64,000 bases of DNA from a virus (Duplodnaviria; Heunggongvirae; Uroviricota; Caudoviricetes): positions 1,823-65,822 of the IMG/VR virus record IMGVR_UViG_2687453454_000003, one strand, 5' to 3'. A program made the position numbers and the translations under genes. A model generated the notes under the pieces. It had not been told where the DNA came from. It ran no database searches and saw nothing but the letters and a program-made list of their open reading frames with translations. Below are positions 55,941 to 59,830 of this stretch, one piece after another (the stretch's first letter is position 1; each line of letters opens with the position of its first letter).

Positions 55941-56279
55941 CTATTTCCCTGAATTTACGACGAAACTGTTCGAGCGGGCTGAAGCACTCATGCTCATAGC
56001 CTTCACGGAGGTAGATAACCCGTTGTGTTTCCGGCTCCCAACGAATGACTCTGACGGGCACTCCGTAGTGATCTTTGAACCAGCGGTTAACTTATCGCAA
56101 AGGACTGTCTCCTTCTGCCGGTTGAAATCCCCCACAGCCCACTCAGCAAAGCTGTGGGTTACAATTTCCCTGTCACCTGGTACATTTACTGCATAGCAAT
56201 ACTCCACCTTCGCTTTTCCACCCGGTACAGGAAGCGCAATCAGTTGCGAGCGACGGTAGTGTGTTGTTAAACTGTTCAT
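55941..56279 (-). CDS. hypothetical protein (boundaries uncertain)
   Basis: ORF track only; C-terminal half looks low-complexity. Confidence 0.25.
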
Positions 56280-56833
56280 GCGTTAGTTTCTCCACAACCA
56301 GAAGCAATCGACGCCACGACGCCCGGAGCTGCACACTCGCGGGCGTCATTACTTTCTGAAACGCAAAAAATTTTGTAGACAAGTGCTGCATGCTCCTGCA
56401 GCTTCGAAATTGAGAGGTACAGCTCGTCGTTAATTGCTGTCTTCTCATGCGGTTCCACTACACCGTCTTCGATTGCCGAACGAATCTGTTTTGAATAACT
56501 GCCGATCTGTTCAATGACTTCCAGTAAACGCTGGTTAATATCGGCATTGTCCACATCCTCGACGTCAGGAAGAGACACAAAGACGCCATTTGCAGACTGC
56601 GCCACAGCGTCGGCAATGAAGTGAGTGCCACCAGCACGTTGTAAAATCATTGCCCATCCCAGCGGGAAAATCTGATCGCCATCGGCACGAAGGCGGTTAA
56701 ATAATGCGTTCTCTGTTACATCCAGCCACTCAGCAGCTTCAGCGTAACCCCCCGGCAACGCCGCGATAGTTTTTCTGACAGCTTTCACGTACCACTCAGG
56801 CTGTTTTTCCACTTTCCAGTGATGATTACCCAC
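56276..56833 (-). CDS. putative CII-like early regulatory protein
   Basis: 185 aa immediately downstream of cro with overlapping start; assignment by position and vague family recollection only. Confidence 0.4.
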
Positions 56834-57086
56834 GGCTTACCTCCTGTTCCTGTGGTTTAAACCCATTCTGGTTTTGGCTAGATTGAAAACGTGCCGGATA
56901 AAGAATCTGCATTTCGCTGATTTCACCCTTAAAAAAATTGGCCAGACGTTCTGCAAGATCGATAGATGGAATTTGTTCCAGTCTTTCAATACGACTCAGC
57001 GTCGCTGGATTGACCTGAACGCCAGCAGCAACATGCTGCAAAGTAAATCCGTGCGCCTTACGCACATTCCGTAATGGTGATTGCAT
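56826..57086 (-). CDS. cro: Cro-like HTH repressor (XRE family)
   Basis: 86 aa; HTH FTLQHVAAGVQVNPATLSRIERLEQIPSIDLAERLANFF; divergent from cI; GGAGG SD. Confidence 0.8.
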   Translation of the reverse strand: MQSPLRNVRKAHGFTLQHVAAGVQVNPATLSRIERLEQIPSIDLAERLANFFKGEISEMQILYPARFQSSQNQNGFKPQEQEVSRG

Positions 57087-57183
57087 ATAACCTCCACATA
57101 TTGCGTGATGAGCATATTATTTCACGCAAATATTTTGCGCAAGTTGATTTGCTTAACGCGCAATAAAGAAATGTAATAAACGC
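57087..57183. promoter_or_regulatory. OR-like operator/promoter region between cro and cI
   Basis: Dyads TTGCGTGA-N13-TCACGCAA (57101-57129), palindrome TTGCGCAA (57135-57142), and TTGCTTAACGCGCAA (57149-57163). Confidence 0.55.
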
Positions 57184-57876
57184 ATGAACATAGGAAACCG
57201 AGTCAGACAACTTCGCCAGGCGAAGAACATGAAAATCGCCGATCTCGCTGAAGCAATAGGAGTGGATGCGGCGAATATCTCACGCCTGGAAACAGGTAAG
57301 CAGAAACAATTCACTGAACAAGCCCTGAGTAATATTGCCAGGAGCTTAGGTGTTGATATTGCTGATCTCTTTACCTCAGACGTCAAAAGTAATACTGTAT
57401 GTAAAAACAGTATTAGTGAGGATGTTGCGCAGGTGAAGGATGTATTCCGTATTGAAATGCTGGATGTCAGTGCCAGTGCGGGAAATGGCCTTATCCAGGG
57501 CGGTGATGTCATTGATGTGATTCATGCCATTGAATACAGAACTGATAATGCTGTATCGATGTTTGGCGGACGGCCAGCCAATCACATTAAAGTTATCAAC
57601 GTTCGTGGGGACAGTATGTGTCCAACCATTGAGCCAGGAGATCTCATCTTCGTTGATGTCAGTATCAATCAGTTTGATGGAGATGGTATCTATGTATTTG
57701 GTTTTGATGATAAAATTTATGTCAAACGACTGCAAATGATACCTGACAAACTACTGGTGATTTCTGATAACCAGATTTACCGTGAATGGGGAATTACCAG
57801 CGAAAATGAACACCGGTTTATGGTCTTTGGAAAGGTCTTAATCAGCCAGTCACAAACCCTTAAGCGACACAATTAA
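57184..57876 (+). CDS. cI: CI-type prophage repressor (N-terminal HTH + C-terminal S24 LexA-like peptidase domain)
   Basis: 230 aa; HTH VRQLRQAKNMKIADLAEAIGVDAANISRLE; C-terminal autocleavage-domain features (VRGDSMCPTIEPGDLIFVD ... KRL). Confidence 0.9.
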   Translation: MNIGNRVRQLRQAKNMKIADLAEAIGVDAANISRLETGKQKQFTEQALSNIARSLGVDIADLFTSDVKSNTVCKNSISEDVAQVKDVFRIEMLDVSASAGNGLIQGGDVIDVIHAIEYRTDNAVSMFGGRPANHIKVINVRGDSMCPTIEPGDLIFVDVSINQFDGDGIYVFGFDDKIYVKRLQMIPDKLLVISDNQIYREWGITSENEHRFMVFGKVLISQSQTLKRHN

Positions 57877-57931
57877 CCCTTACCTCCTCATCAATTAGCC
57901 ACCCAAAGGTGGCTTTTCATCACCCTTTAAA

Positions 57932-57984
57932 TTGCATACCTCGCAACAAAAACACTTGCATAATGCGCAACTTCATTTTATCTT
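57932..57984 (+). promoter_or_regulatory. OL/pL-like region: two 15-bp TTGC-N7-GCAA dyads overlapping a candidate promoter
   Basis: TTGCATACCTCGCAA (57932-57946) and TTGCATAATGCGCAA (57956-57970); candidate -35 TTGCAT (57956-57961) and -10 TATCTT (57979-57984), 17-bp spacing. Confidence 0.45.
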
Positions 57985-58578
57985 TCTTTCCAGACAAACA
58001 AACAAGGTACTAACAAAATTTGGTTGTAACACGGCGTATGGCACATGCGTCGTTAGCGGTCTGGGGACGTTAAAGGGGACAATCCACTCCTTGCTCGGGC
58101 AAACAAACCAGGTAGCCGGAATGTGCAAGTCAATGATGATGCTGATAAGACGCCTAACCAGCGTGGCGATTCGGTTTGACGCCTGGGAAGAGACCAGGGT
58201 GCAACGATGAGGGCATTTATGGAGCCGCGACAAAGTGTGGTGCCGTAACTGGCTAAGTGCTCTCAGCGTTGTGGTAATCCGCGAAATGGCGCGGCGGTAA
58301 GTATGGCGGGGTTACTCTTTCCCCGTTGAGGACACCGGATTGTCAGGTTGACCATACGCCTGAGTGACAACCCCACCACAACAGCCACTGCTTTGGCGGT
58401 ACCAGCTTGTATCCTTGCTTCCGGCTGGTACCGTCCTTTTTACAAAACAGAGAAGAGCATCACCGGACGACGGGCTCATAACCCAATCCATCCGGGCGGC
58501 TGCCACCGCAGGTGTTCTTCTCTGTTTTGTGGAGAAACCAACCGACTTTGCAGGGTCGATATGATGAGGAGCAGCAAA

Positions 58579-58941
58579 ATGGCTAGCGAACGCAGTACTG
58601 ATGTGCAGGCATTTATCGGGGAGCTGGACGGCGGCGTATTTGAAACCAAAATCGGCGCAGTTCTCAGTGAAGTCGCTTCCGGTGTGATGAACACGAAAAC
58701 CAAAGGGAAGGTCTCACTCAACCTGGAAATCGAACCATTTGATGAGAACCGTGTGAAAATCAAACACAAACTCTCATATGTTCGCCCGACTAACCGCGGG
58801 AAAATTTCCGAAGAAGACACCACCGAAACGCCGATGTATGTCAATCGCGGTGGTCGCCTGACTATTCTGCAGGAAGACCAGGGACAATTACTGACTCTTG
58901 CCGGTGAACCTGACGGAAAACTCCGCGCAGCAGGTCATTAA
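58579..58941 (+). CDS. hypothetical early-left protein (120 aa)
   Basis: ATG at 58579 with AGGAG SD; upstream part of the track ORF (from 58348) judged non-coding. Confidence 0.4.
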   Translation: MASERSTDVQAFIGELDGGVFETKIGAVLSEVASGVMNTKTKGKVSLNLEIEPFDENRVKIKHKLSYVRPTNRGKISEEDTTETPMYVNRGGRLTILQEDQGQLLTLAGEPDGKLRAAGH

Positions 58942-59005
58942 TACGTTATTAATAAACTGATTATTTATCTCATCACTGAATATCTTTATATAGTGAGGAC
59001 TTATT

Positions 59006-59830
59006 ATGTCTCAGAACTTAGACGCAACCGCAATTAATCAAATCCATGCCCTTATTTCTGCTCAGGGTGTTAATGAAATTATCAGTAAGATTGGTGCCGA
59101 TGCTGTGGCATTGCCTGAGAATTTCCGCATTCATGATCTGGAAAAATTTAATTTAAATCGCTTCCGTTTCCGTGGTGCGCTTTCCACTGCCAGCATCGAT
59201 GACTTTACCCGTTATTCTAAAGATCTTGCAGATGAAGGCACCCGCTGCTTTATCGATGCTGATAATATGCGTGCCGTCAGTGTGCTTAACCTGGGTACTA
59301 TTGATGAACCAGGTCACGCAGATAACACCGCCACTCTCAAACTGAAAAAGACAGCACCGTTCTCTGCACTGTTGTCTGTTAACGGCGAGCGTAACTCCCA
59401 GAAGTCTCTGGCAGAATGGATTGAAGACTGGGCCGACTACCTTGTGGGCTTTGATGCTAATGGTGATGCCATTCAGGCAACAAAAGCGGCTGCGGCGGTC
59501 CGTAAAATCACGATTGAAGCAAACCAGACCGCTGATTTTGAAGATAATGACTTCAGCGGCAAACGCTCCCTGATGGAGTCTGTCGAAGCGAAGACCAAAG
59601 ACATTATGCCAGTGGCATTTGAGTTTAAATGCGTTCCGTTTGAAGGTCTGAAAGAACGTCCGTTTAAATTACGCCTCAGCATTATCACTGGCGATCGTCC
59701 GGTACTGGTTCTGCGCATTATTCAGCTGGAAGCGGTGCAGGAAGATATGGCTAACGAATTTCGTGATCTGCTTGTTGAGAAATTCAAGGACAGCAAAGTA
59801 GAAACCTTTATTGGGACTTTCACCGCCTGA
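59006..59830 (+). CDS. yfdQ: YfdQ-like protein (DUF2303-type)
   Basis: 274 aa, same length and gene-order context as recalled for E. coli CPS-53 yfdQ, preceding an HD-domain gene; assignment from memory. Confidence 0.5.

Follow-up and report, generated by a model that had tools for sequence, protein, structure and literature searches.

Candidate CI/Cro operators flanking cI in an mEp460/SfII-like prophage of Escherichia coli: a 15-bp dyad common to the predicted OR and OL

Phage 434 provides a well-understood example of how a repressor and its Cro protein share operators: its sites (ACAA-N6-TTGT) have four conserved outer bases in each arm and a variable centre that receives no base-specific contact, and its repressor and Cro, both XRE-type helix-turn-helix (HTH) proteins, read the same sites. 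The operators of P22 are 18-bp sites, unrelated to the TTGC-N7-GCAA dyads that we describe here. The P22 C2 family includes the closest experimentally studied repressor to the CI of the present locus (∼43% identity to C2 of the P22-like ST160/ST104), with the same HTH and S24 architecture but a different recognition helix. The switches of 933W (Stx2) and HK022 show that lambdoid phages can depart from the lambda operator layout. In 933W, OL consists of two sites. Non-cooperative binding and unusual relative affinities are reported for this phage (PMC3317979). The mEp lambdoid phages have been sorted phenotypically into immunity groups (Kameyama 1999, as cited in PMC11893012). In the literature on ST64B, mEp460, the mEp immunity groups and the Shigella converting phages we found no description of operators; a search for the motif strings returned no paper containing them, and the searched literature yielded no binding, footprint or start-site data for this immunity type.

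The window analyzed here (the whole 64,000-nucleotide stretch of phage DNA) contains a divergent pair of immunity genes, cro and cI, separated by a spacer of 97 bp. The gene layout had been described correctly in the initial annotation: both open reading frames are confirmed, and both carry the appropriate Pfam domains (Table 1), with CI matching Peptidase_S24 (E=6e-19) as well as HTH_3/HTH_26. The locus is of the mEp460/SfII/ST64B immunity type, its CI being near-identical (99.6%) to the repressor of the named member mEp460. CI is also 97% identical to that of Stx2a_WGPS2, 97% and 84% identical to those of SfII and ST64B, respectively (local tblastn), and 83% identical to that of the ST64B-like phage F1055. 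At the DNA level, identity over the region is ∼95% with PhiR47_1 and mEp460, 94% with Stx2a-converting phages, 92.6% with Shigella phage SfII and ∼72% with Salmonella ST64B. The 1.8-kb region is represented over at least 80% of its length in 907 of 5,426 complete E. coli genomes (∼17%), and relatives of CI are encoded by more than 445 IMG/VR contigs, the best 80 of which are 99–100% identical. This immunity cassette is among the commonest in E. coli, and it is found also in Stx2a-converting phages, in the serotype-converting phage SfII and in ST64B.

Table 1. Features of the immunity region, in window coordinates.
Feature	Position	Strand	Basis or remark
CP76/CII-like (YmfL) protein gene, adjoins cro	56276-56833	-	
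cro-like gene, 86 aa, HTH_3	56826-57086	-	ORF; Pfam HTH_3 E=5.8e-10
Exchangeable immunity cassette (most of cro, OR, cI, terminator, OL/PL)	56862-58011	.	L176 break points
Candidate operator A (OR1-like) TTGCGTGATGAGCAT	57101-57115	.	dyad with 1 arm mismatch (GCAT)
Predicted PR	-35 TTGCGC 57142-57137; -10 TAATAT 57119-57114; 17 nt; start ∼57106	-	predicted from conservation
CGCAA half-site, core of the right arm of the 8-bp repeat	57125-57129	.	clade-specific
Candidate weak operator B (OR2-like) TTGCGCAAGTTGATT	57135-57149	.	TTGCGCAAGT conservation
Candidate operator C (OR3-like) TTGCTTAACGCGCAA	57149-57163	.	exact dyad
Predicted PRM	-35 TTGCTT 57149-57154; -10 TGTAAT 57172-57177; 17 nt; start ∼57184	+	predicted from conservation
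cI repressor gene, 230 aa, N-terminal XRE-type HTH and C-terminal LexA-like S24	57184-57876	+	Pfam
cI terminator, GCCACCCAAAGGTGGC then TTTT	57898-57917	+	sequence; SfII annotation at equivalent position
Candidate operator OL2 (distal) TTGCATACCTCGCAA	57932-57946	.	exact dyad
Candidate operator OL1 (promoter-proximal) TTGCATAATGCGCAA	57956-57970	.	exact dyad
Predicted PL	-35 TTGCAT 57956-57961; -10 TATCTT 57979-57984; 17 nt; start ∼57991	+	predicted from conservation

Three TTGC-N7-GCAA dyads had been reported around cI, one in the cro-cI spacer and two downstream of the gene, and their coordinates and sequences proved exact (sites C, OL2 and OL1). As an account of the OR/OL set the list was real in all three members but incomplete, since it overlooked a fourth conserved site at OR, site A. 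cI is thus flanked by several copies of one dyad with a common consensus, of which OR and OL each contain two full ones; sites A and C lie 48 bp apart, and OL1 and OL2 24 bp apart. Site C has better arms than site A, yet it overlaps the predicted PRM. Taken over the whole window, the loose pattern TTGC-N7-GCAA shows no enrichment: there are 5 matches where 2.83 are expected, and 18 of 100 shuffles reach 5. When one arm mismatch is allowed, however, the two intergenic regions flanking cI (221 bp) hold 4 matches against 0.12 expected, for which a post hoc Poisson estimate gives ∼1e-5. The clustering of the dyads is far beyond chance. Because the loose pattern is not significant window-wide, we built the argument for operators on clustering and conservation. 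The 64 kb contain three occurrences of the refined consensus TTGC-N6-CGCA(A/T), and these are precisely the three sites originally listed.

To follow the sites through evolution, we compared 91 related loci with CI identities of 66–100%, including relatives from Shigella, Citrobacter, Salmonella, Klebsiella, Buttiauxella, Trabulsiella and Pseudescherichia. Across these 91 loci the four positions (A, C, OL2 and OL1) are occupied by 42 distinct site variants, in which the information is concentrated in the arms: positions 1–4 (TTGC) and 12–14 (GCA) carry 1.7–2.0 bits and position 11 (C) 1.2 bits, position 15 is A or T, and the inner positions 5–10 carry only 0.2–0.9 bits. The arms are kept in the 10 distinct variants of OL2 and in the 13 of OL1, and the centre-to-centre distance between these two sites stays at 22–24 bp across relatives while the spacer sequence changes. 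In an alignment of the whole cro-cI spacer from 11 lineages, TTGC and GCAT of site A and TTGC and CGCAA of site C are invariant, with variable inner bases in both; the invariant columns, besides the start codons and the cro ribosome-binding site, are the arms of A and C, TTGCGCAAGT, the TTA of the PR -10 and TGTAAT. Invariant arms around a free centre are the pattern that would be expected of a site whose arms are contacted by protein and whose centre is not. The recognition helix of CI (AANISRLETGK in the window) conforms to (A/S/G)AN(I/V)SR(L/V)ETGKQK, which is unchanged in all relatives with these arms (CI 66–100%), and the related helix of Cro (PATLSRIER) is kept in relatives as xA(T/N)LSRIER.

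The dyads are arranged around three predicted promoters, PR, PRM and PL, whose geometry (a -35 element, a 17-nt spacer and a -10 element) is strictly conserved in all lineages; it is from this conservation that we infer the promoter assignments. The PR -10 is TAATAT or TAACAT in all relatives and always stands 17 nt from the -35; the PRM -10, TGTAAT, is invariant in 11 lineages and always 17 nt from the TTGC -35; and at PL the -10 variants TATCTT, TAATTT, TATCAT and TATGGT always follow a TTGCRY -35 by 17 nt. Site A, at roughly -9 to +6 of the predicted PR, overlaps the end of its -10 and its start. The left arm of site C coincides with the predicted PRM -35, which places the centre of the site at about -28 of that promoter, and the left arm of OL1 coincides with the predicted PL -35, the centres of OL1 and OL2 lying at about -28 and -52, respectively. 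The predicted PRM -10 lies 6–8 nt upstream of the cI ATG, and the predicted start (∼57184) is the ATG itself. No Shine-Dalgarno sequence precedes this codon; with the -10 so close to the ATG, the cI mRNA would be leaderless. A simple scan for the sigma-70 consensus did not call PR, PRM or PL, each of which matches ∼7 of 12 consensus positions, and called instead TCCACA-16-TATTAT on the plus strand (57093-57120). This call probably reflects the near-palindromic PR -10 together with the ribosome-binding site of cro: a Shine-Dalgarno sequence is missing from cI, and the TGTAAT that lies 6–8 nt before its ATG never varies.

Three adjacent operators about two helical turns apart, as in lambda, 434 and P22, were not found in the cro-cI spacer, which counts against a lambda-type reading; no canonical dyad lies midway between sites A and C. 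Between these two sites, the TTGCGCAAGT core (57135-57144) is invariant in all 11 lineages; it contains the predicted PR -35 (57137-57142), and it may form the left half of a weak third operator, candidate B. In the window, B has a left half-site only: its right arm reads TGATT here and NGC(A/T)T, a good arm, in the non-E. coli loci L006, L007, L009, L010 and L092. B overlaps site C by 1 bp, and its centre would fall at about -42 of the predicted PRM and about -35 of the predicted PR. If CI does bind B as a weak third site, the 1-base overlap would make occupancy of B and of C mutually exclusive: occupancy of B would activate PRM and repress PR, occupancy of C would repress PRM, and stable repression might require looping between OL and OR, not cooperativity between adjacent sites. 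That the logic of OR departs from that of lambda in such a way, with dyads on PR and on the PRM -35, 48 bp apart, and an invariant self-complementary TTGCGCAA core between them, is a conceivable but on balance unlikely outcome.

The initial annotation had also pointed to an inverted repeat with 8-bp arms in this spacer. The repeat is present (TTGCGTGA, 57101-57108, and TCACGCAA, 57122-57129), but it is not a conserved unit among relatives, and we rejected it as an operator for that reason. Its left arm corresponds to the left half of site A. The CGCAA half-site at the core of its right arm is confined to the E. coli, Shigella and Citrobacter (93% CI) loci; ST64B, F1055 and all relatives with 66–75% CI identity lack it, although these keep the 15-bp sites. 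A CGCAA-N5-TTGCG element at the OR midpoint was likewise rejected as OR2, being clade-specific and having its half-sites in the wrong orientation.

The repeat with 8-bp arms enters a different reading of OR, in which the units are two 29-bp TTGCG-N19-CGCAA repeats bound by a higher-order complex of CI or Cro, not by dimers on 15-bp dyads. The two units (57101-57129, which is the 8-bp-arm repeat, and 57135-57163) are separated by 5 bp and are symmetric about 57132, and a Citrobacter locus, L005, has undergone a double compensatory change that preserves the complementarity of the arms at 8/8 (TTGCGTCA ... TGACGCAA). It is because of this double change that we retain the reading at all, as an improbable one: the inner CGCAA of the first unit is missing from relatives (ST64B, F1055 and the 66–75% CI group) in which the 15-bp sites persist, SfII and L004 retain just 6/8 arm matches, and OL has 15-bp dyads only.

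It may also be asked whether these dyads are read by a repressor at all, or whether the TTGC motifs are mere -35 elements with incidental symmetry. Three of the TTGC arms are the predicted -35 hexamers, conserved 17 nt from -10-like hexamers, so that the conservation of TTGC at these three sites is explained partly by -35 function alone, and the lack of whole-window enrichment of the loose pattern is also in keeping with such a reading. We nevertheless consider it very improbable. The right arms, CGCA(A/T), lie in promoter spacers, which are unconstrained by sigma-70, and still vary no more than the left arms; OL2 and site A keep both arms despite having no plausible role as a -35; and heteroimmune cassettes carry other dyads at the same positions.

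The last point is illustrated by the heteroimmune locus L176, whose homology to the window stops at 56861 and restarts at 58012. Outside these break points, identity is 87% in the cII gene (up to 56861) and 90% in the PL leader (from 58012). Between them, L176 has an unrelated cro, cI and spacer, and ATGTAC...GTACAT dyads stand at the equivalent places. Because L176 keeps cII and the PL leader and has other dyads, the dyads go with cI and cro, not with cII or the host. In phage IdasGreatGrand, the CI protein (42% identical) has the helix SQAAIQKIETGK and is flanked by CAACC/GGTTG dyads, with no TTGC-N7-GCAA around it. Both the recognition helices and the dyads of L176 and IdasGreatGrand therefore differ from those of the window. 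The position of the dyads inside the exchanged cassette speaks strongly against a shared CII-like protein or host factor as their reader. That some other regulator than CI and Cro reads them (a CII/YmfL-like protein, an antirepressor-controlled factor or a host protein) is hardly credible: a CP76/CII-like gene does adjoin cro, but the cII-like gene remains 87% identical in L176 despite the different dyads, and the dyads are replaced precisely where cro and cI are, remain conserved in six host genera along with the CI helix, and bracket cI at the canonical OR/OL positions.

Together, these comparisons speak for two proposals of the initial annotation. The first, that the dyads are the CI/Cro operator set, is strongly supported: it agrees with the footprint, with the co-conservation of helix and arms, and with the occurrence of other dyads where the helix is another. 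The second, that they define the immunity specificity of the prophage, agrees with their position inside a cassette that is swapped together with cI and cro between heteroimmune phages. On this sequence evidence, an mEp460/SfII-like E. coli prophage very probably uses the 15-bp dyads TTGC-N6-CGCA(A/T) as the operators of a switch of the lambda type.

We infer binding of the dyads by CI and Cro, and the site preference of each protein, from the arrangement of sites and promoters. In the mechanism that we propose, dimers of CI, with its XRE-type HTH and LexA-like self-cleaving C-terminal domain, would bind the 15-bp dyads, and Cro dimers would probably bind the same ones. OL1 and OL2, 24 bp apart, would switch off the leftward early promoter PL by occupying its -35 and spacer, and site A, placed on the -10 and start of the cro promoter PR, would do the same there. 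Site C, over the PRM -35, would serve for negative autoregulation by CI, for shut-off of cI by Cro, or for both. The TTGCGCAAGT segment would act as the PR -35 and might double as the left half of the weak third site. Finally, RecA-stimulated self-cleavage of CI at Ala99-Gly100 would lead to prophage induction: Ala99-Gly100, Ser144 (GDSM) and Lys181 (VKRL) align with the catalytic residues of LexA (LexA Ser119 and Lys156), and CI should for this reason be cleavable in the SOS response. A search of solved structures revealed no close relative of CI or Cro; the N-terminal domain of CI gave a weak match (E=2e-4) to dh434, a designed 434-derived domain. Downstream of cI, the hairpin and T-run of the terminator are kept in relatives, with covarying stems.

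Beyond PL, the ∼590 nt that precede the first early-left gene (58579) are non-coding and strongly structured (z-score -4.8). SfII, SfV and SfIV are without N and cIII homologues (SfIV genome paper, PMC3851460), which fits the non-coding PL leader seen here. The leader holds a homologue of the published sRNA-17. The 5'-RACE primer of the sRNA-17 paper pairs with the plus strand at 58375-58393, an intrinsic terminator (∼58400-58441) marks the 3' end of this RNA, the fragment termed 'promoter' in that paper corresponds to 58018-58267, and its qRT-PCR amplicon begins at 58018. Given the mapped positions of the primer, the fragment and the 3' end, sRNA-17 probably arises by termination or processing, either of the PL transcript or of read-through from cI.

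The leader also contains a structured RNA of 107 nt (58431-58537): a stem of ∼24 bp closes the structure, which further comprises an inner domain that is conserved and a hairpin that varies. Across 19 diverse sequences, paired cells make up 96.4% of the total, compared with at most 53% in slid controls; 9 pairs show compensatory changes, and the G-U pairs indicate an RNA of the plus strand. This element is found after many different repressor types and is present in 2,491 of 5,426 complete E. coli genomes, where it has no RNA annotation. An Rfam scan of 56000-59500 gave nothing relevant and no match for the 107-nt RNA, and the putL RNA of HK022 shows no similarity to it.

The consensus TTGC-N6-CGCA(A/T) could be used to predict homoimmune prophages, to design reporters or repressor-controlled expression parts, and to search for host genes under the control of prophage CI. 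The general understanding of such switches is unchanged by these candidate operators: the interpretation of the dyads as an ordinary lambdoid operator set, belonging to a very common immunity type, is well supported by the comparative data.

It is instructive to compare this predicted switch with those described previously. As in lambda, cI and cro are divergent and ∼100 bp apart, the repressor combines an HTH with a LexA-like cleavable C-terminal domain, and repeated dyads lie on both sides of cI, overlapping PR, PRM and PL (all predicted here). Like the transcript from lambda PRM, that of cI is apparently leaderless, and cI has its own terminator just before OL/PL. Adjacent lambda operators are 23–24 bp apart, which matches the 24-bp spacing at OL in the window. 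In contrast to lambda, with its 17-bp operator, the candidate operators are 15-bp TTGC-N7-GCAA dyads, two full ones at each of OR and OL, those at OR being 48 bp apart; rexAB is lacking, as is an N gene downstream of PL, where the ∼590-nt non-coding leader is found instead; and the HTH of CI is of the XRE/434 type, unlike that of lambda CI. P22, too, has an N homologue (gene 24) after PL, whereas this phage type has none. HK022 CI has the C-terminal motif DGDGIYVF...VKRLQM in common with the CI described here, but its N-terminal domain is different, and so are the dyads around PL, which are of the GTAC type. Relative to 434, there is no close sequence relationship, and the differences extend to the arm sequence, to the length of the site (15 bp versus 14 bp) and to the recognition helix (AANISR versus QQSIEQ).

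The leader downstream of the predicted early-left promoter PL contains a structured RNA of 107 nt, in which a closing stem of ∼24 bp encloses a conserved inner domain and a variable hairpin (coordinates of all features are collected in the table). Among 19 diverse sequences, paired cells make up 96.4% of the total, compared with ≤53% in slid controls, and compensatory changes are found at 9 pairs; the G-U pairs in the element indicate that the RNA is made from the plus strand. The inner domain reads CGACGGGCUCAUAACCCAAUCCAYCC, although the invariance of this core is in part a product of the search pattern used. The element is present in at least 120 IMG/VR contigs, mostly downstream of repressor types other than that of the window, and in 2,491 of 5,426 complete E. 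coli genomes, none of which carries an RNA annotation at this position. It has no match in Rfam. As candidate functions, the RNA could supply an RNase III site, take part in antitermination or control translation in phages devoid of N.

Features of the immunity region and the early-left leader (window coordinates)
Feature	Position	Strand	Remarks
Promoter-like TCCACA-16-TATTAT	57093-57120	+	Consensus scan; overlaps operator site A and the cro ribosome-binding site
sRNA-17 homologue	∼58267-58441	+	Published RNA: PMC7719688; 5'-RACE primer match within it
Structured RNA, 107 nt	58431-58537	+	In PL leader; covariation and G-U pairs
Small hairpin	58543-58558	+	Stem CGAC/GUCG; loop UUUGCAGG
First early-left gene, YfdP-like	58579-58941		

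The same leader harbors a homologue of sRNA-17, a published RNA of E. coli K1 (PMC7719688). The antisense 5'-RACE primer of that study matches the window at 58375-58393, which places the homologue on the plus strand, with an intrinsic terminator (GGCGGTACCAGC...GCTGGTACCG, followed by a T-run) forming its 3' end. Internally, the homologue in the window departs from the published RNA, and it lacks the region targeted by the Northern probe. The predicted PL is upstream of both the fragment described as the sRNA-17 promoter (58018-58267) and the qRT-PCR amplicon, which begins at 58018; this indicates that sRNA-17 is probably a terminated or processed transcript of the PL leader or of cI read-through.

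At the opposite end of the immunity cassette, the CII/YmfL-like gene adjoining cro (56276-56833, minus strand; region 56000-56861) shows 65-95% DNA identity to phages of other immunity types. Because this region is common to phages of different immunity types, sequence comparison places the cassette boundary within the 3' end of cro, not in an intergenic position.

Within the right operator region OR, the consensus scan returned a single promoter-like call, on the plus strand. This call probably arises from the near-palindromic -10 element of the predicted cro promoter PR; alternatively, it could be a second cI promoter, repressed via site A. A few natural loci carry mutations in the operator arms (equivalents of 57101-57163 and 57956-57970): among the IMG/VR loci, site C contains TTGATT... 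in L060 and CGCAT in L026, site A of L060 contains ...GATCAT, and the left operator OL1 of L057 has CTGC. Such loci may represent prophages that are decaying or have mutant operators. The immunity region is also degraded in L007 (Pseudescherichia) and L008 (Klebsiella spallanzanii): cro is truncated or absent altogether, and of OL either a single site or nothing is left, while cI and the OR sites are retained. This pattern would fit prophages, domesticated or in decay, in which the repressor alone is kept.

No N-like ORF lies in the interval from the predicted PL to the start of the early-left genes (57991-58578), and the YfdP-like gene itself has no Pfam match. According to the SfIV genome paper (PMC3851460), N and cIII are missing from SfII, SfV and SfIV. 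Directly upstream of the ribosome-binding site of the YfdP-like gene lies the small hairpin, which the terminator scan flagged on the minus strand. In related loci the UGCAG(A) loop is retained on differing stems, of which GGCGGUUGCAGCCGCC and GCGCCUGUGCAGAGGCGC are examples; the hairpin resembles those of the boxB or translational-operator type.
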